64,000 bases of DNA from assembly GCA_026417175.1 (NCBI GenBank), contig JAOADT010000001.1, positions 38,918-102,917 of the forward strand, in the 5' to 3' direction. Of this stretch, positions 1 to 35,366 are shown in pieces. Positions within the stretch are counted from its first letter, which is position 1; every line of letters begins with the position of its first letter. The notes under the pieces were generated by a model, which was not told where the DNA came from, did no database searches, and was given only the letters and a program-made list of their open reading frames with translations. Source of the stretch: Deltaproteobacteria bacterium. GTDB taxonomy: Bacteria; Desulfobacterota; Syntrophorhabdia; Syntrophorhabdales; JANXAF01. A program made the translations under genes and the position numbers.

Positions 1-2447
1 GCTTCACGGTAGTAATCCTCTTTGAATCCGTAAGTCCTCATATCCCTGAACAGGATGTAGATATCCACATTAGGGTTTATTTCTTTTAACTTCAGTGCAT
101 TTTTTACGGACTCGGAGCAACATACCCTCGAACAATAATTCCTCTCTTCTGTCCTTGATCCCACACACTGTATCATCACCACTGCACCTGCTGAAATTAC
201 CCTTTCATCTCTTTTTGCAATCAATTCTTCAAGCTCAAGGCCCGTTAACACTTTATCGCTTTGCCCGTATAGGTACTCATTAGGTTTAAATTCCTGAGCT
301 CCTGTGGCTATTACAGTGGCACCATGTCTAATCTCAAATACACCTCTTTCTGATTCTATTTTAGTTAGAAAGTTTCCCACGTATCCAGTGGCTGACAGGA
401 TTTTTGCACCCAGAAAGACATGGATACGGGGCTCACTATATACCCTTTTGACTAAATCCCTAAGATAGGATTGTACATCTTTGCCTTCTATTGTGTAGTA
501 GATCCTTCTGGCCAATCCTCCCAGCTCTCTCTCTTTTTCTATTAAATAAACGTCAAAACCTTGTGAGGCTATAGATAAAGCACAGGTCATTCCGGAAATC
601 CCACCACCTATAACTAAAACCCGTTTGTCTACAGGAAGTTCAAATTCTTGGAGTGGCTCCAAAAGAAGAGCCCTTGCTAAAGACATGCGAAGGAGTTCTT
701 TCGATTTATCAGTTGCCTCTTCTTTCTCTTTTGAATGTACCCATGAGCAATGTTCCCGAATGTTTGCAAATTCGAAAAAGTATTGGTTTAGACCACCCTC
801 TTTTAAAGAATCCCTAAATGTGGGCTCGTGGGTTCTCGGAGTACAAGCCGCCACAATAACCCTGTTTAACCCGTGTTCCTTTATGGCCTCCATTATCTGC
901 TTTGTCGATTCAGTGGAGCACGAGAAAAGCTGACCCTGAGCATGAACTACATTTGGTAACCTCCATGCGTATTCTATGACCGAAGGCACGTCCACGACGC
1001 GCCCAATATTGGCCCCTCAGTAACAGACAAATATACCGACCTTAGGTTCTTCACCTCTAACATCCCGTTCTTCTGGATATACTCTCTGTGTTGCCAACTT
1101 TCCCCTTCTGTAATTCAAAAGTTCACCGCATTTTGTGGCAGCTCCGCTCGATCCGAATACCGATTCGGGTATGTCTATTGGGCCAGAGAAGGCTCCGCTC
1201 ACAAAAATCCCTTTTTTGGAGGTTGTTACTGGAACAAAGCTATCTACTTTACAGAAGCGGTGTTCATTCAATTCTATACCAAACTTCTCTGCTACAAGGC
1301 TAGCTCCCTTGGGTGGACATAATCCCACTGACAAAACAACCATTTCAAATTCTTCATCTTTTACACCCCCATCGGGAGTCGAGTATCTTATCGTTATGTT
1401 ATTGGTAACCGGGTCCTCTTTAAGAATGTTCACATAACTTCTTATAAATCTTACATTTGGAAGAACTTCCGCTCTTTGGAAAAATCTCTCGAAATCCTTC
1501 CCGTAGGACCTTATGTCATTGTGAAAAACTACACATTCCGCCTCAGGATCATGATCTTTAGTTAGAATCACTTGCTTTTGGGTATATGTACAACAGACGG
1601 TAGAACAGTAGCTATTTCCACCTTCAATAACTTGTCTTGACCCTACGCACTGCACCCATGCTATCTTATGCGGATGCCTCAAATCCGAAGATCTTCTTAT
1701 CTCACCCTCGTATGGTCCAGTAGAACTCAATATTCTCTCGTAATCCATACTTGTGACCACGTTTTTAAATTTTCCGTACTTGTACTCATCTCTTAATCTG
1801 GGATCGTAAGGTTCAAAACCTAACGAAAGGATTATTGCTCCAACATTTATCTCTACCTTTTCTGGCTTTGCTGAGAAGTCTATCGCTTCATGCTTACATA
1901 CAGCCTCGCATATTTTACATTTCTTCTCTTTGAGATACAGACAGTTTTCGTCAATGTATGTTATTAGGGGTATGGCCTGAGAAAAGTAGATATGTACGGC
2001 TTTGTTCTTTGAGATCTCCTGATTAAAAGGATCTGGGATTTTCACAGGACAATATTCTACGCAAGTTGTGCAACCAGTACATTTATCTTCCCGGATGTAA
2101 CGGGGTTTCTTAACGAGCGTTACGCGAAAGTCTCCTGCTTCTCCTTCCACGTCGGACACTTCAGTGTAAGTTAAAACCTTTATATTAGGGTGCCGGCCGA
2201 CCTCGACCAGTTTAGGTGAAAGTATTCAGATGGAACATTCATTAGTTGGAAAAGTTTTGTCCAATTGAGCCATGTGACCACCGATAGAGGGGGCACTATC
2301 TACAAGAATTACTCTGAATCCGGAGTTTGCGAGATCAAGGGATGCCTGAATTCCACTTATTCCTCCCCCTACAACGAGAACATCTCCATAATTTTCTCTA
2401 TTTATCATTGTCCTGAACTTAGGAACTTCTAATATCTTCCTTTCCAT
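1..2447 (-). CDS. HdrA-like FAD/Fe-S oxidoreductase (BamE-like). Selenoprotein with two in-frame UGA codons. The 3' end runs off the window start.
   Basis: ORFs 2226..2447 and 1017..2159, plus the frame 3..1016, form one reading frame. I checked 3..1016 codon by codon and found no stop. The only interruptions are TGA at 2226..2228 and 1017..1019. The frame is colinear with the uninterrupted 1036-aa paralogue at 28536..31646 ([25 protein letters not shown](E/D)CS, KPRYI..CTGC). Both TGAs align with Cys in the paralogue: CSMC -> CSI-U and VCHCG -> VCY-U-G. Confidence 0.85.
986..1002 (-). promoter_or_regulatory. SECIS-like stem-loop downstream of UGA 1017..1019
   Basis: On the minus strand, GCGCGTC-GTG-GACGTGC forms a 7-bp stem (one G.U pair) with loop GUG. 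It starts 14 nt after the UGA. Confidence 0.45.
2193..2210 (-). promoter_or_regulatory. SECIS-like stem-loop downstream of UGA 2226..2228
   Basis: On the minus strand, CTGGTC-GAGGTC-GGCCGG forms a 6-bp stem (two G.U pairs) with loop GAGGUC. It starts 15 nt after the UGA. Confidence 0.4.
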
Positions 2448-2468
2448 GGGTACCTCCCCAATGTTTCA

Positions 2469-3278
2469 TTAGTTAGACATTACTTCACGAAATCCTATCT
2501 TTTCAGGATAGGAAAAGATACTAAAACTATTCTTACGAGCCCGACCGACAAGTGTTATCCCGATCTTTTTCGCATAGGATATGGCTCCTTCTGTCGGTGA
2601 ACGCCTCGTTACAAGAATAGCTACCTTTAGTCTTGCAGCTTTGAAAACCATCTCTGATGATATCCTTCCCGTCGTTAGAAGAATCTTATCCTTGGTTTCA
2701 ACGCCCTGAAGAAGACATTCTCCAGCGATCTTATCTATAGTGTTGTGCCTTCCTATATCGTCTGCTATGATAAGCAAATCTGTGGGATCCGCAAGTGCTG
2801 ATGTATGTATTCCCTTTGCATCTCTTTCCGATTCAACGTAATGGTTGAATTTGGCGATGAGATTTAGAAGTTCACTTTCTGAAATACTGAACATTGAATC
2901 AATTTTCTCCTTTTCTCTTCTAAAAACCGCTCCCCCCCCTAAACCTACGGGAATGGTTTTCGTTTCTTTAGGTATTGGGGTATCCTCTGGAATACTCACA
3001 TCAACTTCTTTACCATCCTTTGTCCATTTAATATCCTTTAAATCGTGGAGTTTCAAAATCAAACCTTCAAGATAAAGATAGCCACAAATCAAAGAATCCA
3101 ATTTCTCTGGAGTACAAAGCACATTTACAAGCTCCGTGCCGTTAACCTTTACCTTGATTTCTTTCTCTTTAGGAACGCTTGCGGTTCCTAAAGTAAATCC
3201 TTCTTCAGAATATGAGACACATGGCACATGAGCGACCATCTTTTCTTTGTTCGGAGCATTAAGCGCACTTTTTTTCAT
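2469..3278 (-). CDS. fdhD: FdhD/NarQ-family sulfurtransferase (formate dehydrogenase accessory protein FdhD-like)
   Basis: 269-aa ORF with the family-typical DDIGRHNTIDK ... TGRISSEMV region. Its ATG (3276..3278) overlaps the TGA (3275..3277) of the upstream HdrD-like gene (ATGA coupling). Confidence 0.8.
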   Translation of the reverse strand: MKKSALNAPNKEKMVAHVPCVSYSEEGFTLGTASVPKEKEIKVKVNGTELVNVLCTPEKLDSLICGYLYLEGLILKLHDLKDIKWTKDGKEVDVSIPEDTPIPKETKTIPVGLGGGAVFRREKEKIDSMFSISESELLNLIAKFNHYVESERDAKGIHTSALADPTDLLIIADDIGRHNTIDKIAGECLLQGVETKDKILLTTGRISSEMVFKAARLKVAILVTRRSPTEGAISYAKKIGITLVGRARKNSFSIFSYPEKIGFREVMSN

Positions 3279-4426
3279 ACAACTTCCTCAAGGACCTCGG
3301 TTAAATCTTTTATTCCGATCTTTTCGCCAAGACCGAGCACGAGGCGACTATCTTCAAACGCAGTTATACAGTATGGGCAGGATGTTACAAGTTCTTCCGC
3401 TCCCATATTCAGGGCCTGTTCAACCTTTTTGTTTGAAAATCTTTCCTCTTTTGGGGTCTCCATCCACACCCTTCCCCCACCCATACCGCAGCATAAGCTT
3501 TCCATCTTTGACTCTTCGAACTCTATCAATTCAAGACCAGGGATAGCTTTTAAAATTTCTCTTGGCTCATCAAATACCTTGTTATGCCTACCTAGATAAC
3601 AAGGATCATGATACGCGATCCTCTTTCGGTAATGACCATTTATCCTGAGCTTACCTTCTTTAAGAAGTTTGTAAAAAAACTGGGTCACATGGATAACCTC
3701 AAAGTTAACCATGAATTGAGGATATTCATTCTTGAACGTATGAAAACAATGAGGAGACGAGGTAATTATCCTTTTAACCCCATTCTCTATGAAAGTCTTT
3801 ATGTTCTCTTTTGCAAGACGTACATAAAGATCCTCATTTCCAGTCTTTCTTATACTTTCTCCGCAGCAGTTTTCCTTTTCTCCTAGCAAGCCGAAATCGA
3901 CTCTGGCTTTATCTAAAATTTTTACTACTGCCATCGCAACCCTTTTAAGTCTCGGATCGTAAGAAAGGTAACAGCAGGGAAAATAGAGGTATTCGGTTTT
4001 ATCATCAAAATCCTTAACAGGAAGACCTTCAGCCCATTCTTTCCTTTTTTGTCTCTCCTCGTTAAAAGGGTTTCCGCGAGACTGAAGACCTGCATTTATG
4101 GTCCTTATGGGCTTTACTGGTCCGGGGTACACATTATATCTTGTGGCAATTCTTCTTAAAGCCACCATATCATCTATTTGTTTAACATCCCTTGGACATA
4201 AGGTAGGACATCTTCCGCAAGTGGTACATCTCCATATTTCTTCCTTCTCTATCTCGCTCAATCCAAAAAGAGCTTCACGAACTATCCTTCTTACACTGAA
4301 TCTAGTTACATCATTCCAGGGGCATAAAGTATCGCATTTTCCACACTGAAAACAGTTTTGAACAGCCTCACCACCTGACTCTCTAATCTCATCTATTACT
4401 TCTTTAAAAGGTGCAACTACTTCCAT
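3275..4426 (-). CDS. HdrD-like Fe-S / CCG-domain protein (BamD-like)
   Basis: 383 aa. Two ferredoxin motifs (CFQCGKCDTLCP, CTTCGRCPTLCP) are followed by two Cys-rich CCG motifs (NCCGESIRK, LCCGMGGG). Paralogue of 31668..32819. Confidence 0.8.
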   Translation of the reverse strand: MEVVAPFKEVIDEIRESGGEAVQNCFQCGKCDTLCPWNDVTRFSVRRIVREALFGLSEIEKEEIWRCTTCGRCPTLCPRDVKQIDDMVALRRIATRYNVYPGPVKPIRTINAGLQSRGNPFNEERQKRKEWAEGLPVKDFDDKTEYLYFPCCYLSYDPRLKRVAMAVVKILDKARVDFGLLGEKENCCGESIRKTGNEDLYVRLAKENIKTFIENGVKRIITSSPHCFHTFKNEYPQFMVNFEVIHVTQFFYKLLKEGKLRINGHYRKRIAYHDPCYLGRHNKVFDEPREILKAIPGLELIEFEESKMESLCCGMGGGRVWMETPKEERFSNKKVEQALNMGAEELVTSCPYCITAFEDSRLVLGLGEKIGIKDLTEVLEEVV

Positions 4427-4429
4427 GAC

Positions 4430-4981
4430 TTATCCTTTCTTTGAAAGTCTATAGACCGCATCAAGGACTTTATCCCAACCGTATCTATCTATTAGCGACT
4501 GAACTCCTGTATCCATTTCCTCAGGTGTAGCCTCTTCTTCGACTTCTTCTTCTCTTTCCTCGTATGTAATGGCGTCCACGAGACACCACTTGGCACACAT
4601 GGGTTTATCCAAAGGAGGGTCGTCCTCGCACATATCACACTTGAGCGGAAGTCCAGAGTCAGGTTCTTTAAAGATGTCCCTAGAAGGACAGGAAGCACCA
4701 CAAAAACTGCAAACACTTATGCCATCTCCATAATTGCTCTGAGGTCTTTCATCAAGGAAGTAGACCGGTCTTCCCGCGCACTCAGCACTAGTGTAGAAAC
4801 TCGATTTTACGGGCACGAACACATTCTTTAGCTCATTTCTGAAAACGTGTATCCTCGCTCTGGCCGGGTTGACGTTACTATATTTGGGATTGGCATGAAA
4901 GGCAGCACATGCGACTTCGCATGCCCTGCAACCCATGCATTTGTTGAGATCTATTTTTAATACCTTTACCTTCCTCTTCAT
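4430..4981 (-). CDS. 4Fe-4S dicluster protein (BamC-like small subunit of the AOR-family enzyme)
   Basis: 183 aa with CMGCRACEVAC, CSFCGASCP and CDMCEDD..CAKWC cysteine clusters. Paralogue of 32832..33371. Lies immediately downstream of the AOR gene. Confidence 0.75.
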   Translation of the reverse strand: MKRKVKVLKIDLNKCMGCRACEVACAAFHANPKYSNVNPARARIHVFRNELKNVFVPVKSSFYTSAECAGRPVYFLDERPQSNYGDGISVCSFCGASCPSRDIFKEPDSGLPLKCDMCEDDPPLDKPMCAKWCLVDAITYEEREEEVEEEATPEEMDTGVQSLIDRYGWDKVLDAVYRLSKKG

Positions 4982-4993
4982 GGCACCGCTCCT

Positions 4994-6961
4994 CTATTCA
5001 TCCTTTAATATTCCTCTATTTACAAAATCATCGTAGACATAATCGAGGTCAAGGTTTTTCAAGGTTTCTTTGGTTGGGATCCCATCCTGATTCCACCCTC
5101 TGTATTTATAATACTCGTCCATTAACTTCTGTTCATAATCGGGAAATCTCTTTTTCCAATGATCTTCCGGCGGCTTCTCATCCTTTCTTCTCAAGCCTCT
5201 TCTTATATTATTTGCCCTAACCAAGTTTCTGACTCTAGTTGCAATCTTCCACAGTTCATTTTCATCTACATCCAACCCTGCACCGTAAGACACAAATAGA
5301 GGAAGATTGTGAATATGGTAAGGAGGCTTTATAGGAAATGAAGAAACACCAGCACACAAACCTAAAGAATCATCAATATAATGCATTGTTTCCTGCCATT
5401 CTACAAGTTCACAAACAAGATCAGGTGGGGGCCAGAAAGGAAAAACCTTACCCTCTTCTCCCCATTCCAGAACAAACTGTTTGAACCTTTCTTCTTTCCC
5501 AGTGGGAATCTGTATCCAGTCACTCACAAATTGCTCTCTTATTTCCCTTGGTAGGGGTGCTTGGGGAATCTGTCCCTCGATCTGGGTGATATTTATTTTC
5601 TCTCCTGTGGACCACATTATGTAATAAATGGGGTTTAACATTCCCAATTTTATTGGTACCTGCTCGTGTTTTTTTATTGTGTTGTGATCAAAAGCCTCTG
5701 CTCCCCTTCCTATTCTTCTTGCCGCCCAGTAAACTCCGTCTGCCAAAACATCTCCTATACCTTCCCTTCTAACTATACGCTCCAAAAGCCAGAAGAATCT
5801 CTCCTTCTTATCTCTTGGGAAGCCCTCCATGTCACTGTCTGTGAGTATTCCATTTTCGTACAATTCTATCGCAAAAGCCATTACCTGTGGTGCGGTGAAA
5901 CCATCTACCCCGTAATGTTGAGCGCGGGAAAGGATCTGAAAACCAAAGTCCAAATCGTCTACCTCTGCGGCCATTACGTATGTCAACTTTGTGAAACACT
6001 TGAGTATATAAGTGGGGTATCCTGGAACCTCTATTATACCGGCGCATCTCACAGGGCAGTTATAACAACTAATAAGTCTCTTCTTTACACTTTCCATAGT
6101 ATCGGCCCATCTTTTTTCCACTTCTTTGTTCCAGAAACCTTTTCTTCTTTGTCTGGCGTGACCCCATGCAAAGCTATCAAGATGCCATTCCTCGTCATGA
6201 AGGGCCATTTCTTGGGGTGAACCTATATAAGCAAGTATTGGAGGCACACCAGGAATTGGATTATTAAGCCGATATTGGATATAATCGAGAACCTTGTTGC
6301 ACTCATTAATAAACTCATAAGGTTTAGCGACGTTTATATCCTTCGTTCCCCTAACAGCTATAGCTTTTAACTTTTTGTCTCCCATCACTGCACCAAGTCC
6401 AAGCCTGCTCGCACTTCCTCTATGCGTCTCAATTGAAGCAAAAAAGACTCTGTTTTCTCCAGCTAGTCCTATAGATATAACTTGTGCTCTGGGTTCATTG
6501 AGCTCCTCTCTTATGGCCTCTGCTGTCTCATAAGTGCTTTTCCCTTGGAGATGTCTCGCATCCCTTATTTCAACCTTATCATTATTGACCCAAATGTACA
6601 CCCAGTCTGGGGCCTTACCCTTTACTATAATTTTGTCATAACCAGCAAATTTCAACTCTGGTGCCCAATAACCACCCATAATTGAGAAACCAAAAAGAGA
6701 ATTCTGCGGTGATAGTGATGTTATAATAGTCCGGTTAGCGGCAGGTGCTGGTGTACTAACTAAAAGGCCTCCACTAAAAATAAGTATGTTTTCGGAAGAG
6801 AATGGTTGAACTTCAGGAGAAACTCTATCCCACAGTATTTTTGCATTTGTACCAAGTCCTCCAAGATACATTTCAGTCATCTGAGGGTCGGTTTGAATTT
6901 TTTCTATGTTTCCCGTAGAAAGGTCTATTTCCAGAAAATACCCTGTTTCCGCATATCTCAT
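4994..6961 (-). CDS. Aldehyde:ferredoxin oxidoreductase (AOR)-family tungsto/molybdopterin enzyme (BamB-like)
   Basis: 655 aa. The N-terminus MRYAETGYFLEIDLSTGNIEK...GGLGTNAKILWD and the GENRV / GAVMGDK motifs are typical of the AOR family. Paralogue of 33389..35353. Confidence 0.85.
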   Translation of the reverse strand: MRYAETGYFLEIDLSTGNIEKIQTDPQMTEMYLGGLGTNAKILWDRVSPEVQPFSSENILIFSGGLLVSTPAPAANRTIITSLSPQNSLFGFSIMGGYWAPELKFAGYDKIIVKGKAPDWVYIWVNNDKVEIRDARHLQGKSTYETAEAIREELNEPRAQVISIGLAGENRVFFASIETHRGSASRLGLGAVMGDKKLKAIAVRGTKDINVAKPYEFINECNKVLDYIQYRLNNPIPGVPPILAYIGSPQEMALHDEEWHLDSFAWGHARQRRKGFWNKEVEKRWADTMESVKKRLISCYNCPVRCAGIIEVPGYPTYILKCFTKLTYVMAAEVDDLDFGFQILSRAQHYGVDGFTAPQVMAFAIELYENGILTDSDMEGFPRDKKERFFWLLERIVRREGIGDVLADGVYWAARRIGRGAEAFDHNTIKKHEQVPIKLGMLNPIYYIMWSTGEKINITQIEGQIPQAPLPREIREQFVSDWIQIPTGKEERFKQFVLEWGEEGKVFPFWPPPDLVCELVEWQETMHYIDDSLGLCAGVSSFPIKPPYHIHNLPLFVSYGAGLDVDENELWKIATRVRNLVRANNIRRGLRRKDEKPPEDHWKKRFPDYEQKLMDEYYKYRGWNQDGIPTKETLKNLDLDYVYDDFVNRGILKDE

Positions 6962-7097
6962 TGTGATTCTCCTTTTTTATTGAATCGTTTTTGAAAAATT
7001 TTTCACCTTAATTTGATTATCACACATTCTTCTACCAGTCAAGATAAAAAATGAAATAATTCACAAGCTCTCGACGAAAGGATTACATATTTTTGTC

Positions 7098-7125
7098 TTG
7101 ACACTTTAAAAAGTGCTGGTAGAAT
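7098..7125 (+). promoter_or_regulatory. Sigma-70-type promoter for the dodecin gene
   Basis: TTGACA (7098..7103), 16-nt spacer, TAGAAT (7120..7125), preceded by a TGg extended -10. RBS AAGGGAGG lies before the ATG at 7149. Confidence 0.5.
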
Positions 7126-14674: not shown

Positions 14675-14688
14675 CTTTCCACCTCTCT

Positions 14689-15465: not shown

Positions 15466-15481
15466 TTTCAACCTCCTTACC

Positions 15482-23078: not shown

Positions 23079-25100
23079 ATGATAACATCTATTATGGTCC
23101 AGGATTTTCTCGAGTCTATTCTTGTAGTATTTGGAATATCTGCTTCCATAATTTACTTACTCGGAAAAATAAAACTTCCCTCCATAGTTGGTTTCCTCTT
23201 AGCCGGAACCATTATAGGACCTTATGGGATGGGGCTTATTCAAAGCTTAAAAGACGTTGAGATGATCGCAGAAATTGGAATTATCCTTCTTATGTTCACA
23301 ATAGGTGTTGAATTCTCACTGACTAAACTTTACGGGCTGAAGAAAGAAGTGTTCTTGTTTGGTCCCTTACAAATACTGCTTACAACAACTATCTCTGCCG
23401 TTTTGGCACACATCATTTTAGATATCCATTTGAGAAACGCCACTTTCTATGGGTTTGTCGTGAGTCTAAGTAGCACTGCTATTGTCATGAAACTTTTAGC
23501 TGAGAAAGGCGAGCTCAATACAAGACACGGGAAGATATGTGTGGGCATTTTATTATTTCAAGACATATGCGTAATTCCTTTGATGTTGTTGACTAGGCTT
23601 ATTTCAACTCATAACGAACAACCTTTAGGAGATTATCTGGTGGTTCTTCTTAAGTCTTTTTTGATACTCTTTGTAGTTTTTCTATTCTCTAGGACGGCCA
23701 TTCCCTATTTTCTTCATGAAATTGTCAAAACAAAAATTAGGGAGCTTTTTATCCTCGTAACAATCTTTGTTTGTCTTGGTACAGCCTATGTAACCTCCAA
23801 GTTGGGTCTTTCTTTAGCCCTTGGAGCCTTTCTTGCAGGAGTTATAATATCAGAATCGGAATACTCATCTCAGGCGCTCTCCGATATTTTGCCTTTTAAA
23901 GAAATATTTTCGGGCATATTCTTCATTTCTATTGGCATGTTACTGGATCTTGAGTTTTTAAAACTAAGGATCACAGATGAATTCGTGCTTATCTTGACAG
24001 TTATTTTTATTAAGATTCTGTCAGTTGTTTTTGCAGTTTACCCCTTTGTAAAATCCTTAAAAATTTCTCTTAAGACAGGTTTTTCTCTCGCTCAGATAGG
24101 AGAATTTTCATTCATCCTTTCTTTTGCCGGAAGGGCGCTAGGTCTTATAGATTCACAAGAATACCAGAGCTTTATTGCAATCACCGTTGCTTCCATGTTT
24201 ATAACACCTGCAATATTGAGATACTCTCCTAAAATAGTTGATGAACTGGTAAAATTGAAGCTTTTCCACCATTTTGAAAAGGTGACCAGAATAAAGGACA
24301 GTGAAATCTCTGTGAGAAAAATGAATCACGTCATAATAATCGGATTCGGGCTAAATGGTAGAAATCTTGCCAGGGTACTTAAAGATTCCGGAATAAGTTA
24401 TGTAATCCTGGATCTAAATCCGGACACTGTTAGAAAATCAAAAAGAAAAGGGGAACCTATATACTATGGAGATGGAACAAGTTCAGAAATCCTTCGCAAG
24501 CTTGGAATCCTTTGGGCAAAGATACTTGTCGTAGCCATCTCTGATCCCACATCCACAAAAAGGATTGTGGAAATGGCTAGGACCGAAAATCCCAGAATTC
24601 ACATAATTGTTAGAACCCGTTACGTCTCAGATATAGACGAGCTTTTGAATGTTGGTGCGAACGAGGTAATCCCTGAAGAATTCGAAACATCTCTTGAGAT
24701 ATTTGGACGGGTTTTACATCATTTTGGAGTTCCGAGAAACAAGATACTGGAAACAATAGACCGTATAAGACAAGAGGGATACAAAACTCTACTTTTAGAT
24801 ACACCCCTAAAAACAAGGGTCGGCTTGGAGTGCACAATGGTGGAAGGTCTTGAAATGGATAGCTACATTGTGGAAAAGGATTCCTGGTTAAAGGGAAAAT
24901 CGATAAAGGCCATAAATCTCAGGGCAAAAACAGGAGCAACAATTATCGCCGTAAAAAGGGGTGAAGAAAACATTCTAAATCCAGACCCAGACCTTGTTTT
25001 GAATGAGGGTGACATAGTCGTTTATTTAGGTACAAAAGAACAAGTTACACTAACCTTCCATTTTTTAAGTGGAAGGCCCTCCGGACAGAGCCTGAGTTAA
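23079..25100 (+). CDS. CPA2-family monovalent cation:proton antiporter (Kef-type) with C-terminal RCK (TrkA-N / TrkA-C) domains
   Basis: 673 aa. About 12 hydrophobic segments, then VIIIGFGLNGRNLARVL (a GxGxxG NAD fold) and a TrkA-C-like C-terminus. Confidence 0.85.
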   Translation: MITSIMVQDFLESILVVFGISASIIYLLGKIKLPSIVGFLLAGTIIGPYGMGLIQSLKDVEMIAEIGIILLMFTIGVEFSLTKLYGLKKEVFLFGPLQILLTTTISAVLAHIILDIHLRNATFYGFVVSLSSTAIVMKLLAEKGELNTRHGKICVGILLFQDICVIPLMLLTRLISTHNEQPLGDYLVVLLKSFLILFVVFLFSRTAIPYFLHEIVKTKIRELFILVTIFVCLGTAYVTSKLGLSLALGAFLAGVIISESEYSSQALSDILPFKEIFSGIFFISIGMLLDLEFLKLRITDEFVLILTVIFIKILSVVFAVYPFVKSLKISLKTGFSLAQIGEFSFILSFAGRALGLIDSQEYQSFIAITVASMFITPAILRYSPKIVDELVKLKLFHHFEKVTRIKDSEISVRKMNHVIIIGFGLNGRNLARVLKDSGISYVILDLNPDTVRKSKRKGEPIYYGDGTSSEILRKLGILWAKILVVAISDPTSTKRIVEMARTENPRIHIIVRTRYVSDIDELLNVGANEVIPEEFETSLEIFGRVLHHFGVPRNKILETIDRIRQEGYKTLLLDTPLKTRVGLECTMVEGLEMDSYIVEKDSWLKGKSIKAINLRAKTGATIIAVKRGEENILNPDPDLVLNEGDIVVYLGTKEQVTLTFHFLSGRPSGQSLS

Positions 25101-25661
25101 GAGGTATAGCGCCTGGGCGTAAGAAGTCGGACAGAGCGGGAAGCATTCTTTACACTTATCACATTCTTTTAAAGCGATCTCAGGGATAAAACTTATCTCT
25201 CTTTTCACCCCGCTTTGAACAAACGATATGGCATATTTTTTCTTGACTTCAGAGCAGTATCTAACACATAGACCACACAGGATGCAGAATATAGGTTCCT
25301 TCCCAAATTTTTCTTCTTTTGCACCATATTCTTCTTTTAGTTTGATAAGTTCGGGAGATCCTGGCGCACGTGCAAGAAGAAGCTCCACTATAATCCGCCT
25401 TATTTTTTCAACCTCTGGACTCCTTGTTTTCACAACAAGCCCTTCTTCAACTGGGTAAAGACAAGAGACAACATAATTTTTTCTTCCCCTACTTTCAATT
25501 TCTACTGTGCATAGTCTGCAACCGCCATAGGGCTCAAGATCTTTATGGTAGCAAAGTGTGGGAATATCTATACCTTCCCTTAAAGCTACCTGAAGGATGG
25601 TCATACCTTTTTCTGCCTTACATTCCTTCCCGTCTATGGTTATATTCACTACATCTGACAT
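25065..25661 (-). CDS. [2Fe-2S]/[4Fe-4S] protein resembling the NuoG N-terminus (BamI-like)
   Basis: Start MSDVVNITIDGKE at 25661, 2 nt after the NuoF-like stop. Motifs CYHKDLEPYGGCRLCTVEI, CILCGLCVRYC and CDKCKECFPLCP. Confidence 0.8.
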   Translation of the reverse strand: MSDVVNITIDGKECKAEKGMTILQVALREGIDIPTLCYHKDLEPYGGCRLCTVEIESRGRKNYVVSCLYPVEEGLVVKTRSPEVEKIRRIIVELLLARAPGSPELIKLKEEYGAKEEKFGKEPIFCILCGLCVRYCSEVKKKYAISFVQSGVKREISFIPEIALKECDKCKECFPLCPTSYAQALYLLTQALSGGPST

Positions 25662-25663
25662 CT

Positions 25664-27313
25664 TTACTTCTCCTTGACTAATCGTGATTCGAACTCTTTC
25701 CAAAAGTATTTCAAAGCACTCTCCAAGGGAGATGAAGCTGTTCTTCCCAATGCGCACAGAGAAGCCTCTTTTTGAACATCGCAGATTTCTCTTATCGTTT
25801 CCACATCCTGATACGTGCCGGAACCGTCCTTTATCTTTTTGAGGAGTTTTCTTATCTGTCTTATACCCTCCCTACAAGGGACACACTTACCACATGATTC
25901 TGTTGATAGAAAATCCAGAAAATAAGAGACTAGTTCAAGCATATCATCTTTTTCGTCAAGAACAAGTAACCCACCAGCGCCAATAGGTGCTCCTAATTTG
26001 GCACATGCGTCAAAATCTAAAGGGGTATCTATTAGTTCCTTCGGAATTGATCCACCCATGGCAGACCCAAAATGAACAGCCTTTAAATCATTTCCGTTTC
26101 CAGTTCCTCCACCTAAGTCGAATACAATCTCCCTCAGACTCATCCCAAAAGGTACCTCAATCACTCCGGCATTTTTTATTCTTCCCGAAAGCGATATAAG
26201 CTTTGTCCCCTTGCTCCTCTCGGTGCCTATTTTCGAGTACCATTCAGCCCCATTTTCTATAATGAGGGGTACATTGGCCCATGTTTCCACGTTATTTAAA
26301 TTACTAGGTTTTTCGTAGATCCCGCTTACCGATGTCCTTATGTATTTGGGTCTAGGCTCAGGAATCTTTCCTTCGATCGACCTCATTAAAGCACTAGATT
26401 CACCGCTAACGAATATGCCTATATCCAGGTGAATCTCCACATCGAAGTCGAACCCGCTTCCCAATATGTTCTTTCCAATAAAACCATATTCTCTCGCTTT
26501 GCTAATAGCTGTTTCTATATTTTTTAATAAGTCTGGTGCATCATGCCTGGTATAGATAAATCCTTGTCTGGCCCCTATGGCATAAGCCCCAATTATTAGA
26601 CCTTCGAGAACTATGTGGGGATTGCCCCCGAGGATTGCTCTATCCATGTATGCACCAGGTTCACCCTCATGTCCATTAACGATCACATATTTGATGTCAC
26701 TTTTTGCGTTTCTTGTAGTCTCCCACTTCTGACCAGCAGGAAAGCCGCCACCTCCTCTCCCTCTTAAATTGGACTTCTTGATCTCCTCTAAAACATCAGT
26801 TGGAGACATTTGGGTTAGCGCCTTTACTAAAGCAGAATAACCTCCAAGTGCTATGTAATCGTCAATACTTTGGGGATCAATCTTTGTGTTATATCCGAGG
26901 ATAAGCCTAGTCTGTCTATTATAGAACGGTATATCCTTAAGGTGAGGGGTCTTCCCTACTTTTTCATCTTCGTAGACAAGTCTGTCAACAATTCTATTTC
27001 TCAATATGGTTTCCTCAATTATTTCTGTTGCATCTTTTTCTTTCACTTTAAGGTAACATATCTCTTCAGGATAAATGATTATACTTGGCCCCCAGGAACA
27101 CATCCCATGACATCCCGTGAGTTTGACCTTGATTTTTTCTTCAAGACCCTTTTTACCAAGCTCATCCTTTAGTGCGCTTGCAATCTTTTTTCCATCTTTA
27201 CTTGAACATCCTCCCCCGCCACAAACTGATATTATCCGTTCCGAAGAAGCCATTATAGACTGTACCCTATTTTTCAATTTTAAAAAGTCTTCATATGAGC
27301 TTATTCTCTGCAT
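25664..27313 (-). CDS. NuoF-like NAD(P)H-binding FMN/Fe-S flavoprotein with an N-terminal thioredoxin-like [2Fe-2S] domain (BamH-like)
   Basis: 549 aa. GRGGGGFPAGQKW (FMN site) and ESCGKCVPCREG ([4Fe-4S]). N-terminal CGGGGCSS...CHGMCSWGP. Confidence 0.9.
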   Translation of the reverse strand: MQRISSYEDFLKLKNRVQSIMASSERIISVCGGGGCSSKDGKKIASALKDELGKKGLEEKIKVKLTGCHGMCSWGPSIIIYPEEICYLKVKEKDATEIIEETILRNRIVDRLVYEDEKVGKTPHLKDIPFYNRQTRLILGYNTKIDPQSIDDYIALGGYSALVKALTQMSPTDVLEEIKKSNLRGRGGGGFPAGQKWETTRNAKSDIKYVIVNGHEGEPGAYMDRAILGGNPHIVLEGLIIGAYAIGARQGFIYTRHDAPDLLKNIETAISKAREYGFIGKNILGSGFDFDVEIHLDIGIFVSGESSALMRSIEGKIPEPRPKYIRTSVSGIYEKPSNLNNVETWANVPLIIENGAEWYSKIGTERSKGTKLISLSGRIKNAGVIEVPFGMSLREIVFDLGGGTGNGNDLKAVHFGSAMGGSIPKELIDTPLDFDACAKLGAPIGAGGLLVLDEKDDMLELVSYFLDFLSTESCGKCVPCREGIRQIRKLLKKIKDGSGTYQDVETIREICDVQKEASLCALGRTASSPLESALKYFWKEFESRLVKEK

Positions 27314-27324
27314 AGCCTTTCCTT

Positions 27325-27771
27325 TTATCCAATTTTCTTAAGTATTCCTTCTATATCATCAGGTTTTACATTTCCATATACTTCACCATCTATCTCTATT
27401 TCCGGCCCAGAAGCACAGCGTCCGGAACAGGAGGATAATTCTAAGCTAAACTTCATGTCAGGAGTTGAATCACCTACTTTAATCCCAAGGAGGTTTTCAA
27501 GTTTTTCTACAACTTCCCTTCCACCCCTTATATAGCAGGACACCCCCGAACAAACTTTTATCACATGCTCAGCTTTGGGTTTCAGGCTAAACGTTTTGTA
27601 AAAAGTTGCTATTCGCATCACTTCATTCACTGGAACAGACAATCTCTTACTGAGATAAAAAATAGATTCTCTAGGTATATACCCCTTTTCGTGTTGAACG
27701 TCCATTAACATCTCGATGAGAAAATTTCTTCTTCTGGAATACTTCTCTATGATGCTTTCCAAATAATCCAT
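27325..27771 (-). CDS. NuoE-like thioredoxin-fold [2Fe-2S] protein (BamG-like)
   Basis: 148 aa. CSGVSCYIRGG ... CSGRCASGPEIEIDG. Confidence 0.88.
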   Translation of the reverse strand: MDYLESIIEKYSRRRNFLIEMLMDVQHEKGYIPRESIFYLSKRLSVPVNEVMRIATFYKTFSLKPKAEHVIKVCSGVSCYIRGGREVVEKLENLLGIKVGDSTPDMKFSLELSSCSGRCASGPEIEIDGEVYGNVKPDDIEGILKKIG

Positions 27772-27774
27772 AGA

Positions 27775-28527
27775 TCAACTCCCTACTTGTGTCTCTAGTT
27801 TCACAAATCCTTCTAATTCAAGATTTTTTAATGCTTTAAGAATCTCCTTTTCGTCAATGCCTACCCTTTTTGACAATTCTCCGTATTCTGAAATTCCTTT
27901 TCTTTTAGCATCAACTATAAGCCCCATAGTTATTTTATCGAAAATCATTTTTTCGATAATACTATTTATCTCAGGGCTTTCAAAATATTCGTCAATTTTT
28001 CCGATATTATTCCCTTGGAACCTGAGTCTCCCTCTTTCTACTAGTTTGATGTACGGAAGGAGATTCAGTACCACACCTAGCCTCTCATTCATAACTTCAT
28101 CTGGTAAACCTTCTTTCTTTCCTATGGGTCCAAGCTCTTTTATCTGCCGTATGAAATCTTGCATCACTTCTGCAAATCTAACACCTTCTGCAGATGAGAG
28201 AAATTCCATTCTGATTCTCTTTTTATCAATACCAATAAATCCGAAAATCTTTTTTAAAAGAATAATCATTCCATATGCGTGAATATTACCTTCCGTTGTG
28301 TAATGGCATTCTCCTGGAAGACATCCCACTACTATTATTCCATCCACTTTTTCTTTAAATGAATTAATCACGAAGGCAGGATCAACTCGTCCCGTACACA
28401 TAACACGAATCAGTCTTATATCTGGGGGGTATTGCAGTCTGGAAACTCCAGCCAGGTCAGCCGCTCCGTACCCTCACCAAAAACAAACAAAACCGATAAT
28501 CTTTGGCATATACTCAAAGGTATTCAT
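27775..28527 (-). CDS. MvhD-like (methyl-viologen-reducing hydrogenase delta subunit family) selenoprotein (BamF-like), with a C-terminal extension
   Basis: The track ORF starts at 28401 (MCTGRVDP), but the frame stays open upstream through a single TGA (28474..28476) to the ATG at 28527, which has AGGAGG 4 nt upstream. The result is [48 protein letters not shown], matching the MvhD N-terminal consensus C-x-W-C-x-Y-x-G-A-D-L-A-G with Sec at the second Cys. Confidence 0.85.
28439..28451 (-). promoter_or_regulatory. SECIS-like stem-loop downstream of UGA 28474..28476
   Basis: On the minus strand, CTGGA-GTT-TCCAG is 22 nt after the UGA. It is flanked by a possible outer helix GGGTA (28473..28469) / TACCC (28431..28427). 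Confidence 0.4.
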
Positions 28528-28535
28528 AGATCCTC

Positions 28536-31500
28536 CTAATCTTTTTCTCTTAAAGCTTCAATACCTTCTCTTATCTGAGTGTAAAGCTGGGTATCTGTAA
28601 AGTGCTTAAGCTGTATCGCATTTGTCGGGCATTTAGCGTTGCAAAGTCCATCTCCTTTACAGAGCACTGGATTAACTCTAGCTTTTTTTCCTCTTTCAGT
28701 TTCGTAAAACTCGATAGCGTCATATTTACAGACCGAAATACATGCGCGACAAGATACGCACTTTTCTTCATCGACTTCACATATGGCTCCCGAAGCCAAA
28801 ACGTAGTCTTTAGAAAGAAGTGTTAAAGCTCTACCTGCCGCTCCGTAAGCTTGATTTATCGCTTCATTTACATGTTTTGGATAGTGTGCCATTCCGCACA
28901 GAAACACTCCTTCTGCAGAAAAGTCTACAGGACGTAATTTCACATGGGCTTCTTGGAAGAAACCGTCAGGGTTGATCGGAACTTTGAAGAACTTTGAAAT
29001 CTGGGTATTATTTCTATGAGGAATCACAGCTGAGGCCAATACTAACATGTCAGCTTCGATTTCTAGTTCCTTCTTTATAACTCTGTCTACCACTTTTACG
29101 ATAAAACTTTCCTTTCCCTTGGACCCTTTAAATTCTACAGTAGGAGGAATGTCTAGGTCGTAACGGATGAAACGTACTTCTTTGTCCTGGGCTTTAAAAT
29201 AATAATCTTCGTTGAAACCATAGGTCCTCATGTCTCTGAAAAGTATGTATATATCCTTCTCAGGGTATTTCTCTTTTAGCTTCAGGGCATTTTTTACTGA
29301 ATGGTTGCAACATATTCTACTGCAGTAATTTCTTTCCTCGTTTCTTGATCCAACGCATTGGATCATTACAATGGTCCCTACATTTTTGATCCTTTCATCT
29401 TCCCTAGCTAGAAGTTCTTCGAATTCAAAATTTGTTACAACAAAATTGTTCTTTCCATACATATATTCTTTCGGTTTATATTCTTCTGCTCCTACCGCTA
29501 CTATTGCAACTCCGTGCTTAATTGTACTAATTCCGTCCCTTGTTCTTATCCTTGTGGAAAAGTTCCCCACGTATCCTGTGACATCGAGTATCTCCGAATT
29601 TGTCCTCACATGGATGTTAGGATGCGAAAGCACCTGGCCTATAAGTTCGTCTGTAAAAGAGCGAACATCAAACCCATCAAGAGTGAAATAAAGTTTCTTG
29701 GCATTTCCTCCAAGAGTCTCCTCTTTTTCCACAAGGTATACCTCGTAACCTTGTCTTGCTATACTTAAGGCAGAGACCATACCGGCTATTCCACCGCCAA
29801 CAACGAGTACTCTTTTATCTATGGGAAGTCTCAATTCCTCAAGAGGGGCTAGATACACAGCTCTAGCTACAGCCATTCTGACTAAATCCTTTGCTTTCTT
29901 CGTTGCACGCTCCTTTTCCCTTGGATGCACCCAAGAGCAATGTTCCCTTATATTTGCCATTTCAAAGTAATACTGGTTAATTCCGCCTTCTCTTAGGGTA
30001 TCTCTGAAAAGCGGTTCATGGGTCCTTGGAGTGCAGGCCGCAACAACAACTCTATTCAATCTTTTCTCCTTTATCGCATCTGCTATCTGTTTTGCCGCAT
30101 CTGTAGAGCATGCAAATATTGACTCCTGTGCATGTACCACGTATTTAAGTCTTGAAGCAAATCTTACCACCTCTGGTACGTTTACAACCCTTCCTATGTT
30201 TGCTCCGCAATGACATACAAATACTCCCACACGAGGTTCTTCTTGAGTTGTATCCCTTTCTTCTGGGTAAAGTCTCTCCTTAGTCAGTAGATTTCTACGT
30301 GTGCCGAGTATTTCCCCGCACTGACTTGCTGCACCGCTTGCAGATACAACAGATTCAGGTATATCCATGGGACCTTGAAACGCACCACTCACAAATATTC
30401 CGGGTCTTGAAGTTTTTATAGGATTGGAAGGAGAAAATTTTGAAAACCCGTACCCATTTAATTCGATGCCAAATTTCTGAGCAAGTTCTGTATATCCACT
30501 TGGTGGCTTGAGCCCAACAGAAAGTACCACCATATCAAAATCCTCTTCTTTTACCCCGTCCTCTGTAGCATATCTTATCCTAAGATTCTTGGTGTCTGGA
30601 ATCTCACCCTCCAACGAGACATAACTTCTTATGAATCTTACCCCTTTTAAATTCGATGCTCTTTGGTAAAACCTTTCAAAGTCTTTTCCAAATGACCTTA
30701 TATCGTTGTGGAATACCACACATTCGCAGTCAGGTTCATGCTCCTTTGTAAGAATCACTTGCTTCTGTGTATAGGCGCAACACACGGAGGAACAATAGGG
30801 AGAGCCAGGTTCTTTTAATGTTCTAGATCCTACACACTGAATCCATGCCACTTTCTTTGGATGCCTTTTGTCAGACTTTCTTAGGATCTCTCCTTCGTAT
30901 GGACCGGTAGAGCAGAGTAATCTTTCGTAGTCAAGGCTTGTCACGACGTTATCGTAAACCCCGTAGCCAAATTCAGTTGTAAGTGAAGGATCAAACACTT
31001 CAAAACCAGGAGCTAGAATAATGGCTCCAACTTCTATCTCTTCCCTTTTCGGTTTTTGAAAAAGATCTATAGCCTTGTTCTTGCAAACACCCGCGCATAT
31101 GGAGCACTTCTCTCCACTTAGATACAGACAGTTATCCCTGTTTATGTAAGCAACAAGTGGAACGGCTTGAGAAAAATACACATGAATAGCCTTATTCTTT
31201 GAAAGCTTCTGATTGTATTCGTCCTCAACTTTTATTGGGCAGAACTCGGTACACATACCGCATCCGGTACATCTTTCCTCATCAATGTATCGCGGTTTTC
31301 TTATAAGGCTCACTCTGAACTCGGGAAATTCGCCATCAACCTTCTCTACTTCCGTATATGTGAGAATCTTAATGTTTGGGTGTCTACTACACTCGACCAG
31401 TTTCGGTGACTCTATACACATGGAACAGTCATTTGTGGGAAAGGTCTTATCAAGCTGTGCCATGTGACCACCTATGCCTGGAGCACGGTCAACAAGATAA

Positions 31501-31646
31501 ACTTTGAAACCAGAAGAGGCAAGATCTAAAGACGCTTGTATACCACTTATTCCTCCACCGACGACCATTATGTCGCCAACTTCTTTTTTTTCGAAATCCC
31601 TTATAAGTTGCAAAATTTTTTCTTTAGTGATTACCTCTCCGTTCAC
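28536..31646 (-). CDS. Double HdrA-like FAD/Fe-S oxidoreductase (BamE-like), all-Cys version
   Basis: 1036 aa. Two dinucleotide folds ([32 protein letters not shown]), several ferredoxin-type Cys clusters and a C-terminal 2x[4Fe-4S] motif (CVSCRACISVC, CKGDGLCNAKCP). Confidence 0.9.
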   Translation of the reverse strand: MNGEVITKEKILQLIRDFEKKEVGDIMVVGGGISGIQASLDLASSGFKVYLVDRAPGIGGHMAQLDKTFPTNDCSMCIESPKLVECSRHPNIKILTYTEVEKVDGEFPEFRVSLIRKPRYIDEERCTGCGMCTEFCPIKVEDEYNQKLSKNKAIHVYFSQAVPLVAYINRDNCLYLSGEKCSICAGVCKNKAIDLFQKPKREEIEVGAIILAPGFEVFDPSLTTEFGYGVYDNVVTSLDYERLLCSTGPYEGEILRKSDKRHPKKVAWIQCVGSRTLKEPGSPYCSSVCCAYTQKQVILTKEHEPDCECVVFHNDIRSFGKDFERFYQRASNLKGVRFIRSYVSLEGEIPDTKNLRIRYATEDGVKEEDFDMVVLSVGLKPPSGYTELAQKFGIELNGYGFSKFSPSNPIKTSRPGIFVSGAFQGPMDIPESVVSASGAASQCGEILGTRRNLLTKERLYPEERDTTQEEPRVGVFVCHCGANIGRVVNVPEVVRFASRLKYVVHAQESIFACSTDAAKQIADAIKEKRLNRVVVAACTPRTHEPLFRDTLREGGINQYYFEMANIREHCSWVHPREKERATKKAKDLVRMAVARAVYLAPLEELRLPIDKRVLVVGGGIAGMVSALSIARQGYEVYLVEKEETLGGNAKKLYFTLDGFDVRSFTDELIGQVLSHPNIHVRTNSEILDVTGYVGNFSTRIRTRDGISTIKHGVAIVAVGAEEYKPKEYMYGKNNFVVTNFEFEELLAREDERIKNVGTIVMIQCVGSRNEERNYCSRICCNHSVKNALKLKEKYPEKDIYILFRDMRTYGFNEDYYFKAQDKEVRFIRYDLDIPPTVEFKGSKGKESFIVKVVDRVIKKELEIEADMLVLASAVIPHRNNTQISKFFKVPINPDGFFQEAHVKLRPVDFSAEGVFLCGMAHYPKHVNEAINQAYGAAGRALTLLSKDYVLASGAICEVDEEKCVSCRACISVCKYDAIEFYETERGKKARVNPVLCKGDGLCNAKCPTNAIQLKHFTDTQLYTQIREGIEALREKD

Positions 31647-31667
31647 GTCTCTTTCCTCTTTTCTTTT

Positions 31668-32819
31668 TTAAGTTACTTCGTTTATTAACTCTGCCAAGTC
31701 CTTTATACGAAGCTTATCTTCGTAACCCATGATTAGCTTACTGTCTTCCAGCGCTGTTATGCAGTAAGGACAACTAGTCACAAGTTCCATAGCACCCAAT
31801 TTCACCGCGTCTTCAACTCTTATGTTAGAAAACCTTTCGTGTTTCTCGGTTTCGGCCCAAACTCTACCCCCTCCCATTCCACAACACAAGCTTGCGAGTC
31901 TATTCTCTGGAAGCTCCAGCATATTGACCCCATTTATTGACCTGAGTACCTCTCTAGGTTTTTCAAATATGTTACTGTGTCTTCCAAGGTAACAGGGATC
32001 GTGATAAGCGATATTTGCCACATAGTCTCTGCTGAGTTTTAATCTCTTGGACTCTATGAGTTCTTTCAAATACTCGGATATGTGTACAACCTCAAAATTT
32101 GCACCGAAATTAGGATATTCATTTTTGAAAGTGTAATAGCAATGTGGTGATGAGACGACTATTTTTCTTACCCCGAAGTCAATAAACTTTTTTAGATTTT
32201 CTTTGGCAAGCTTCTTAAAAACTTCTTCATTTCCCGTTTTCCTTATGCTTTCCCCACAACAACTTTCAGCCTCACCGAGAATCCCAAAATTCACCTGTGC
32301 CTTTTGTAACAGCTGTACAGTTGCTCTCGCAACGTTTCTGAGTCTCGGATCGTAGCACATATAACAGCATGTGAAATAGAGAACCTCCATCTTCTCCTCA
32401 AAAATCTTAACGTTTAGTCCTTCTGCCCACTTCGCTCTCTCCTTTGGGTCCTCATTAAATGGATTACCTTTAGAGATGAGGTAAGTAGCTATCTGTCTGT
32501 AAGTTTTTGTAGAGCTTGGAAATACATTGTAAGCAGTTGCCATTCTTCTTATGGCCACTATGTCATCAATCTGTCTCACATCCCTCGGACACAAAAGGAC
32601 GCATCTCCCACACGTGGTACATCTCCAAATGTCCTCTTTTTCAATCTCTGTGAGACCAAATACCGCATCTCTTATCAATCTTCTCATACTAAATACCCTA
32701 ACGCGATTCCAAGGACATACCGCATCACATTTACCGCACTGATAACAGTACTTTACCCTTTCCCCACCGTACTGTTTTATCTCATCAATTACCTCTTTAA
32801 AAGGCGCCACAATTTCCAT
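31668..32819 (-). CDS. HdrD-like Fe-S / CCG-domain protein (BamD-like)
   Basis: 383 aa. CYQCGKCDAVCP and CTTCGRCVLLCP, then the CCG motifs SCCGESIRK and LCCGMGGG. Confidence 0.85.
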   Translation of the reverse strand: MEIVAPFKEVIDEIKQYGGERVKYCYQCGKCDAVCPWNRVRVFSMRRLIRDAVFGLTEIEKEDIWRCTTCGRCVLLCPRDVRQIDDIVAIRRMATAYNVFPSSTKTYRQIATYLISKGNPFNEDPKERAKWAEGLNVKIFEEKMEVLYFTCCYMCYDPRLRNVARATVQLLQKAQVNFGILGEAESCCGESIRKTGNEEVFKKLAKENLKKFIDFGVRKIVVSSPHCYYTFKNEYPNFGANFEVVHISEYLKELIESKRLKLSRDYVANIAYHDPCYLGRHSNIFEKPREVLRSINGVNMLELPENRLASLCCGMGGGRVWAETEKHERFSNIRVEDAVKLGAMELVTSCPYCITALEDSKLIMGYEDKLRIKDLAELINEVT

Positions 32820-32831
32820 GTCTAACCCTCA

Positions 32832-33371: not shown

Positions 33372-33388
33372 GTCTTACGCTCCTTTAC

Positions 33389-35353: not shown

Positions 35354-35366
35354 ACTTTCACTCCTT

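Follow-up and report, generated by a model that had tools for sequence, protein, structure and literature searches.

The stretch analysed here, positions 1 to 6961 of a 64,000-nucleotide window (C11:38918-102917) from a Deltaproteobacteria genome of 2.15 Mb that is 96% complete, contains a gene cluster designated cluster 1. We consider it likely, with a probability of roughly 0.7, that it is the 5' portion of an intact operon for a class II (tungsten, ATP-independent) benzoyl-coenzyme A (CoA) reductase of a short form, in which the BamGHI module is bypassed. The operon exhibits the gene order bamB-bamC-bamD-fdhD-like-bamE-bamF and ends 1.5 kb past the window edge. A second cluster, cluster 2, is located in the same window (25065..36134), and the products of both belong to the class II (tungsten) benzoyl-CoA reductases (Bam). 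The electron donor probably differs between the two enzymes, and the aryl-CoA substrate possibly does as well.

Gene content and active sites of the two bam clusters

The original prediction had described the stretch as a second, diverged copy of an AOR/ferredoxin/HdrD/HdrA module; the system behind this description is the Bam class II benzoyl-CoA reductase. Open reading frame (ORF) calling placed the four minus-strand ORFs at 4994-6961, 4430-4981, 3275-4426 and 1-2447, as predicted. The gene bamB1 (4994..6961) encodes the 655-amino-acid (aa) tungsten (W) bis-metallopterin catalytic subunit of the AOR family, which matches BamB from Geobacter metallireducens (PDB 4Z3W_A) with 1007 bits and 65% identity, and bamC1 (4430..4981, 183 aa) encodes its polyferredoxin partner (195 bits versus G. 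metallireducens BamC, PDB 4Z3W_E). They are followed by bamD1 (3275..4426, 383 aa), whose HdrD-like product comprises two CCG domains (PF02754, 3.9e-36) and a 2[4Fe-4S] domain (Fer4_8), by an FdhD-like gene (2469..3278), and by the first 815 codons of bamE1 (1..2447), all on the minus strand. The whole bamE1 gene spans C11:38242-41364 (1040 aa), and the selenocysteine (Sec)-containing, MvhD-like bamF1 is situated beyond the window edge (C11:37366-38202 or -38214).

Cluster 1 was correctly predicted to share the AOR/ferredoxin/HdrD/HdrA gene order with the first four genes of the 28536-35353 cluster. The encoded pairs show 56% (BamB1 and BamB2, 657 aa), 45% (BamC), 61% (BamD) and 65% (BamE, over 798 aa) amino acid sequence identity. 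Within the first 200 residues of the two AORs, for which an identity of about 55-65% had been estimated, 124 of 202 aligned positions (61%) are the same. Between the two clusters, blastn aligned DNA pieces of 64-70% identity, and megablast of cluster 1 DNA against cluster 2 returned no match; therefore, cluster 1 is not an assembly duplicate. The proposed old paralogy was also borne out by a maximum-likelihood BamB tree, in which four further sequences with the loop deletion, originating from the same family, the same order and another family, clustered with BamB2 (support 99/100), and BamB1 fell into a separate clade (support 100/100). Each of the two proteins has orthologues in other families and orders. 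Since the BamB2 clade spans these taxa, the duplication is older than their splits. BamB-type genes number exactly two in the genome, and its single BamGHI set belongs to cluster 2.

A protein Cys ligand to W (Cys322) is present in all BamB proteins and not in aldehyde oxidoreductases, and Glu251, His255, Glu257 and His260 are invariant BamB hallmarks, with His260 and Glu251 lining the substrate pocket (PMC12096430). When 35 BamB sequences were aligned with the crystallised 4Z3W protein, BamB1 was found to retain the [4Fe-4S] ligands Cys299/302/306, the W-ligand Cys322 and all four of Glu251/His255/Glu257/His260, which form the Zn site and the proton conduit. BamB2 (777 bits and 58% identity versus 4Z3W chain A) keeps Cys322 and His260, whereas an 11-residue deletion takes out the Glu251 loop, and His255 and Glu257 are replaced by Glu and Asp, respectively. 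The comparison of the two AORs thus recovered all the defining residues in BamB1, and BamB2 lacks the Glu251 loop. The label of diverged copy does not suit cluster 1, whose active site is canonical; the deviant BamB is that of cluster 2.

Cluster 2 (minus strand) consists of iclR (35367-36134), bamB2 (33389-35353), bamC2 (32832-33371), bamD2 (31668-32819), bamE2 (28536-31646), bamF2 (27775-28527), bamG2 (27325-27771), bamH2 (25664-27313) and bamI2 (25065-25661). The MvhD-like bamF2 gene harbours a Sec UGA codon at 28474-28476, so that cluster 2 is not selenium-free. BamH2 (549 aa) ends just after the NADH_4Fe-4S domain and lacks the C-terminal 2[4Fe-4S] ferredoxin-accepting domain. Weak winged-helix signals were detected in BamF2, and none in BamF1. 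Cluster 2 is peculiar in its loop-deleted BamB, its IclR regulator and its BamH devoid of a ferredoxin domain.

The ferredoxin domain of BamF1 and the short cluster layout

The original prediction had left it to the region beyond position 1 whether MvhD/NuoEFG-like genes follow. Extension of the contig revealed that the MvhD-like gene, i.e., the Sec-encoding bamF1, does follow and that NuoEFG-like genes do not; no BamGHI/NuoEFG genes were found downstream of bamF1. The N-terminal part of BamF1 is MvhD/FlpD-like (FlpD domain, 5.6e-45; motif CHW-U-GYGAAD), and its C-terminus contains a 2[4Fe-4S] ferredoxin domain at the place where a BamI-docking winged-helix would stand. In Geobacter, the winged-helix of BamF, a protein with Sec19, docks BamI, and the C-terminal domain of BamH, which holds clusters H1 and H2, takes electrons from external reduced ferredoxin (10.64898/2026.04.10.717634). 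The C-terminal domain of BamF1 exhibits 58-62% identity (E 1e-27 to 1e-31) with its counterpart at the C-terminus of BamH proteins (641-649 aa) from long clusters, a likeness that extends to the trailing PVPPP motif, and just 27-40% identity with other ferredoxin domains.

To place this arrangement, 40 BamE loci of the phylum were surveyed within regions of about 20 kb, and the window proteins were placed on them. The short layout, BamB-C-D-(FdhD)-E-F with a ferredoxin-type BamF C-terminus and without GHI, was present in 25 of the 40 loci, including cluster 1 of the window, both same-family genomes and two metagenome contigs. The long layout, BamBCDEF-GHI, was found in 13 loci and in cluster 2, and the remaining loci contain BamE and BamF with no adjacent BamB. 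Both layouts often occur in one genome (four examples), and they are interleaved in the BamB tree, indicating that the input module has been swapped repeatedly. In the same-family genome G119, which is 98% complete, the sole BamE locus is a short cluster, and the only HydB-like protein is a 1023-aa fusion (45% identity) encoded elsewhere. Many short-form clusters, at eight of the surveyed loci, carry a second HdrD-like gene (32-37% identity to BamD1) about 1-2.5 kb past bamF; no such gene is present beyond bamF in cluster 1 of the window.

From its subunits, cluster 1 is predicted to encode a benzoyl-CoA/1,5-dienoyl-CoA oxidoreductase. According to the mechanism that we propose, reduced ferredoxin would hand electrons straight to the ferredoxin domain of BamF1, from which they would pass through the BamF [2Fe-2S] cluster and Sec to the bifurcating flavin adenine dinucleotide (FAD) of BamE1. 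The low-potential electron would then pass a selenenylsulfide formed by Cys71 and Sec74, followed by the Fe-S chain that runs through BamE and BamC, and arrive at the W-OH2 centre of BamB1, where benzoyl-CoA would be converted into 1,5-dienoyl-CoA. The high-potential electron would leave via BamD1, probably to the electron-transfer flavoprotein (ETF)/ETF-oxidoreductase encoded 5-9 kb upstream. Because ferredoxin would enter directly at BamF1, the NADH/ferredoxin-confurcating BamGHI module would be bypassed. A broader proposal, that the short BamBCDEF form is self-sufficient, working in one bifurcation step with reduced ferredoxin only, with BamGHI dispensable, a two-Sec relay in BamE and a Cys-less FdhD as W-cofactor chaperone, is tentative, and we place it somewhat below even odds; in the Geobacter structure, BamGHI is presented as integral to reaching -620 mV (10.64898/2026.04.10.717634).

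Selenocysteine sites of BamE1 and the FdhD-like protein

The extended contig also revealed that the HdrA-like gene is neither truncated nor decayed. BamE1 is encoded by a complete 1040-aa frame in which two TGA codons are the only stops and no frameshift occurs; an ordinary ORF call breaks the gene into three fragments, which are rejoined when TGA is read as Sec. The protein, a fused double HdrA with three HdrA-matching stretches, is predicted to be an electron-bifurcating flavoprotein, and its orthologues in related genomes show 69-86% identity. The claim that Sec replaces two Cys residues in this protein held, as the two TGA codons align with Cys77 and Cys480 of BamE2.

The first UGA (2226..2228, minus strand) encodes Sec74 within the motif C71-S-I-U74, aligns with Cys77 of BamE2 and corresponds to a CxxC site in both Geobacter and BamE2. 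This TGA is kept in the 20 best-scoring BamE orthologues of a 301-genome phylum survey, as well as in loci L014, L015 and L017. A selenocysteine insertion sequence (SECIS) hairpin, CUGGUCG-AGGU-CGGCCGG (2193..2210, minus strand), starts 18 nt after the U of the UGA. In the 22 Sec-bearing sequences, the third positions of six consecutive codons in this hairpin are 100% invariant, compared with 0.36-0.91 in the flanks, and the hairpin is gone from the Cys paralogue BamE2. Geobacter BamE and BamF residues were compared through the text of the cryo-electron microscopy preprint, which reports that the low-potential electron travels between the bifurcating FAD and cluster E3 through the Cys59-Cys62 disulfide of BamE (10.64898/2026.04.10.717634). 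Judging from its position in the motif, Sec74 would be the second residue of this redox-active CxxC.

The second UGA (1017..1019, minus strand) encodes Sec477 in the motif V-C-Y-U-G, which reads VCHCG in BamE2 (Cys480). This TGA is rare, being restricted to the window and the same-family loci L021, L015 and L016, and other orthologues have TGT or TGC. Comparative folding identified a SECIS hairpin, GGGCGCGUC-GUG-GACGUGCCU, at 984..1004 (minus strand). A 9-bp GC-rich hairpin occurs exactly in the TGA-bearing sequences, with local folds of -14.3 kcal/mol in the window and -17.6 kcal/mol in L021, and the 21 sequences with Cys at this site (20 orthologues and BamE2) fold at -2.0 to -11.3 kcal/mol; the stem arises by synonymous changes, and only where UGA is present. 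Similarly, TGA was found in 30 of 30 motif-matched BamF sequences from surveyed loci of both cluster types, BamF2 included, and the hairpin CUGGA-GUU-UCCAG located 3' of it is exact in 28 of the 30 and differs by one or two substitutions in the remaining pair. The genome encodes the Sec machinery, namely selB (383 bits), selA (578 bits), selD (368 bits) and tRNA-Sec. With UGA codons at Cys sites, hairpins and the full machinery, bamE1 has the features of a bacterial selenoprotein gene. The selD gene (C88:9793-10701, locus L087) has one in-frame TGA, which makes the selenophosphate synthetase itself a selenoprotein.

The fdhD gene reported between the HdrD-like and HdrA-like genes was confirmed at 2469-3278. 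Its product scores 6.5e-61 with PF02634 and 154.6 bits with TIGR00129 (cut-off 140.9), and a 4-nt overlap exists between the gene start and the bamD1 stop. The persulfide-carrying Cys of FdhD is located in the GCG(G/V) loop (Cys121/Cys124 in E. coli). In the window protein this loop reads PVGLGGG, and the pattern P-V/T-G-L-G-G-G is shared by the window protein and its five nearest relatives, whereas the other ten aligned FdhD proteins, including the second FdhD of the genome (on C12) and the Bam-embedded FdhD of L017, have a G-C-G-G-G loop. Outside the altered loop, conservation is strong. The embedded FdhD-like protein has thus lost its catalytic cysteine.

A locus-level search with the FdhD protein among the genome contigs gave no relative, and a homologous-protein search did find relatives. 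Among those located on long contigs, the three closest show identities of 64, 52 and 49%, and each is encoded between bamD and bamE. An FdhD-like gene is likewise present in three other surveyed loci, and in a GHI-containing cluster it lies directly upstream of bamE on a contig that ends before any bamD. The closest cluster devoid of the gene is that of G119 (L039), where bamD is directly followed by bamE and the codon at the second BamE site is TGT. Consequently, both the FdhD insertion and the second Sec vary within one family. BamB binds non-nucleotide metallopterins, and its sixth W ligand is water rather than sulfide (PMC12096430), so that a sulfurtransferase is not obviously needed. On the most economical reading, the Cys-less FdhD-like protein would most likely be a cofactor-binding chaperone for BamB and not a sulfurtransferase.

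Competing explanations, known systems and genomic surroundings

The sole BamGHI set of the genome is located 25 kb away on the same strand as cluster 1, and in Desulfococcus multivorans a single bamE-I set accompanies two copies of bamB-D (PMC5109826). Both observations would agree with a scheme in which the BamBCDEF proteins of cluster 1 are spare parts that join the single BamGHI of cluster 2, giving two full-size complexes with a shared NADH/ferredoxin input. We regard this scheme as unlikely, since a ferredoxin domain occupies the part of BamF1 where Geobacter BamF has its BamI-docking winged-helix region, most of the surveyed loci are GHI-less clusters with this same BamF fusion, G119 possesses a GHI-less cluster only, and BamH2 itself lacks the ferredoxin-accepting domain.

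Less probable still is that the two clusters form an isoenzyme pair for selenium or tungsten supply, one for plenty and the other for scarcity, as with Vhu/Vhc in methanococci. The two Sec positions of BamE1 are both Cys in BamE2, and cluster 2 has its own regulator, IclR, both of which speak for such a pair, but cluster 2 is still selenium-dependent through the BamF2 UGA, which is accompanied by the same invariant SECIS hairpin, and neither set is Sec-free. A selenium-supply switch is therefore unsupported, and since the W-ligand Cys is retained in BamB1 and BamB2 alike, as is the cofactor fold, the differential regulation by selenium or tungsten supply suggested in the original prediction was not supported. 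Moreover, the clusters differ in subunit set and BamB pocket, beyond the needs of a simple Sec/Cys backup. We give very little credence to the view that cluster 1 is a decaying or silent duplicate whose TGAs are ordinary stops. The three pieces returned by a standard ORF call for the HdrA-like gene would be expected in that case, and the cluster is known here from genes alone; reading TGA as Sec nevertheless yields one open 1040-codon frame with no frameshift or further stop, orthologues within the family are 79-92% identical and preserve the gene order, SECIS hairpins conserved at synonymous sites occur at both UGAs, and the genome has the full Sec machinery. The sequence already contradicts this view.

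Several points weigh against the proposed reading of cluster 1 as a short-form benzoyl-CoA reductase operon. Cluster 1 is known in this organism from genes alone, and electron input via the BamF1 ferredoxin domain would follow from domain homology only. HydB/NuoF-like proteins were found elsewhere in every genome checked (BamH search, 15 genomes), and an unlinked NADH module may serve the short form. Single-sequence folds downstream of the UGAs were no better than shuffles (z -0.7 to +1.0), and neither a SECIS element nor any other Rfam family was matched in bamE1/bamF1; the case for SECIS elements therefore rests on comparative conservation. Given the non-nucleotide metallopterins and the aqua ligand of BamB, an FdhD-like protein has no obvious task in this system. 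Regarding the downstream pathway, contig C66:76510-80630 (L085 6508-10630) encodes an M24 peptidase, a Dch-like hydratase, Had (TIGR03201, 462 bits, above the cut-off) and a short-chain dehydrogenase/reductase, and this block is 60-87% identical to one beside the Bam cluster in L017. The 382-aa Oah/BamA encoded between the hydratase and Had in L017 is missing from the C66 block, and a canonical Oah/BamA was not found in the genome, where the best match reached 134 bits against a cut-off of 464 and the best Oah-like candidate is a 324-aa BadI/MenB-like crotonase on C16. The downstream pathway is therefore incomplete or non-canonical.

Among the closest characterised systems is the G. metallireducens Bam[(BC)2DEFGHI]2 complex (PDB 4Z3W-4Z40), whose BamB-F subunits are homologous to those of cluster 1 and encoded in the same order, and which shares with it the BamB active-site residues, the fused double HdrA of BamE and the BamF Sec in a CxWU motif. 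In contrast to Geobacter, the cluster 1 operon lacks BamGHI, bears the ferredoxin-accepting domain on BamF instead of BamH, encodes a CxxU in BamE where Geobacter has the Cys59-Cys62 CxxC, includes a second Sec (VCYUG), and contains the inserted FdhD-like gene. In the benzene degrader Desulfobacterota ORM2a, FdhD is also part of the bam cluster, being listed between BamD and BamE in the protein table, and the protein was detected in the proteome; ORM2a has a full bamEFGHI-bamR continuation, whereas cluster 1 of the window ends at bamF (PMC13101534). Two or more diverged bam sets per genome, arising from duplicated bamB-D or whole bamB-I and with BamB paralogues about 64-66% identical, occur in G. 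metallireducens, Geotalea daltonii FRC-32, D. multivorans and Desulfotomaculum gibsoniae (PMC1924859, PMC5109826, PMC4148979), and BamE of D. multivorans is a selenoprotein, as is predicted for BamE1 (PMC5109826). Similarity to the methanogen HdrABC-MvhAGD complex (PDB 5ODC, 8RVU) extends to HdrA (BamE1, three stretches, 663 bits), MvhD (N-terminal part of BamF1, 138 bits) and HdrBC/HdrD (BamD), with the same bifurcation logic; unlike that complex, cluster 1 has neither a hydrogenase nor a heterodisulfide substrate, and its low-potential electrons would go to a W enzyme rather than to free ferredoxin.

Duplicated bam sets and Sec-containing BamE are thus on record for Geobacter, Desulfococcus and Desulfotomaculum, as is FdhD inside a bam cluster for ORM2a, and the core of the finding is of a known kind. 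The openly searchable literature, which does not cover subscription journals, held no mention of a GHI-less layout with the BamH ferredoxin domain on BamF, of a second BamE Sec or of a Cys-less FdhD relative, and the altered FdhD loop without the conserved Cys seems to be unreported. In sediments and aquifers that are strictly anoxic, the key enzyme for breaking down aromatic rings is class II benzoyl-CoA reductase, which is also the only known flavin-bifurcating system working below the ferredoxin potential. The sole structure, from Geobacter, explains this low potential by two coupled modules, BamGHI and BamDEF, and the commoner layout in the surveyed genomes is the GHI-less form with the ferredoxin-entry domain on BamF. 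If the short form is active alone, the minimal machinery for a biological Birch-type reduction would be simpler than thought, and marker surveys and pathway models that demand bamB-I would overlook or wrongly score many degraders. The two-Sec BamE and the Cys-less FdhD-like protein are smaller points that could easily be tested.

Upstream of bamB1 there is a 187-nt spacer followed by a dodecin gene, a hairpin with a T-run after groEL, and groESL. The promoter region that had been attributed to cluster 1 was upheld to the extent that the cluster has its own upstream region, parted from groESL by the groEL terminator hairpin and the divergent dodecin gene. A promoter-like element (TTGACT, 15 nt, TGtGATAAT; 7016..7042, minus strand) is a consensus match only and went unlisted in the consensus scan because of its 15-nt spacer; a putative promoter region of its own is nonetheless a reasonable assignment for cluster 1. 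The 71-aa dodecin (7149-7364, plus strand; PF07311, 3.4e-26) is encoded divergently from bamB1 behind a strong sigma-70-like promoter match (TTGACA-16-TAGAAT, 7098-7125), and the order groEL-dodecin-bamB is kept in L014, L015 and L016. Dodecins are flavin-storage proteins, and the Bam complex is rich in flavin. Between the two Bam clusters, at 12136-16630 (minus strand), an operon encodes an acyl-CoA dehydrogenase, EtfB, EtfA, an ETF-QO/FixC-like protein and a small ferredoxin. Lying 5-9 kb upstream of bamB1 and syntenic with the short Bam cluster in L014-L016, this ETF/ETF-oxidoreductase operon is a candidate for the high-potential electron outlet.

Downstream of bamF1, the genes for a truncated NagA-like amidohydrolase, a Zn-dependent dehydrogenase and TrpD follow. 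The amidohydrolase gene (295 aa; C11:36469-37356, L009 10470-11357, minus strand) begins 9 nt past bamF1, and a 287-aa amidohydrolase is likewise encoded after bamF in L014; the amidohydrolase gene bamU of G. metallireducens is induced on benzoate (PMC1924859). A link of a downstream ATP-binding cassette transporter to phosphate, tungstate or molybdate was considered and rejected, since PhoB/PhoR-like genes and a phosphate porin give the region the look of a Pst/Pho locus. Elsewhere in the genome, a third Hdr-type locus (C77:68884-80302, L003-L008) contains an HdrD-like gene (40% identity to BamD1), an MvhD-like gene and several HdrA-like pieces, of which one contains an in-frame TGA, and presumably encodes a separate Hdr/Flox-type complex. 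Finally, C97 (28455-30815 and 63665-65961) carries a third AOR (31% identity to BamB1) with an adjacent BamC-like ferredoxin and, about 33 kb from this AOR, a NuoE/NuoF-like pair with a ferredoxin domain in the NuoF-like protein.

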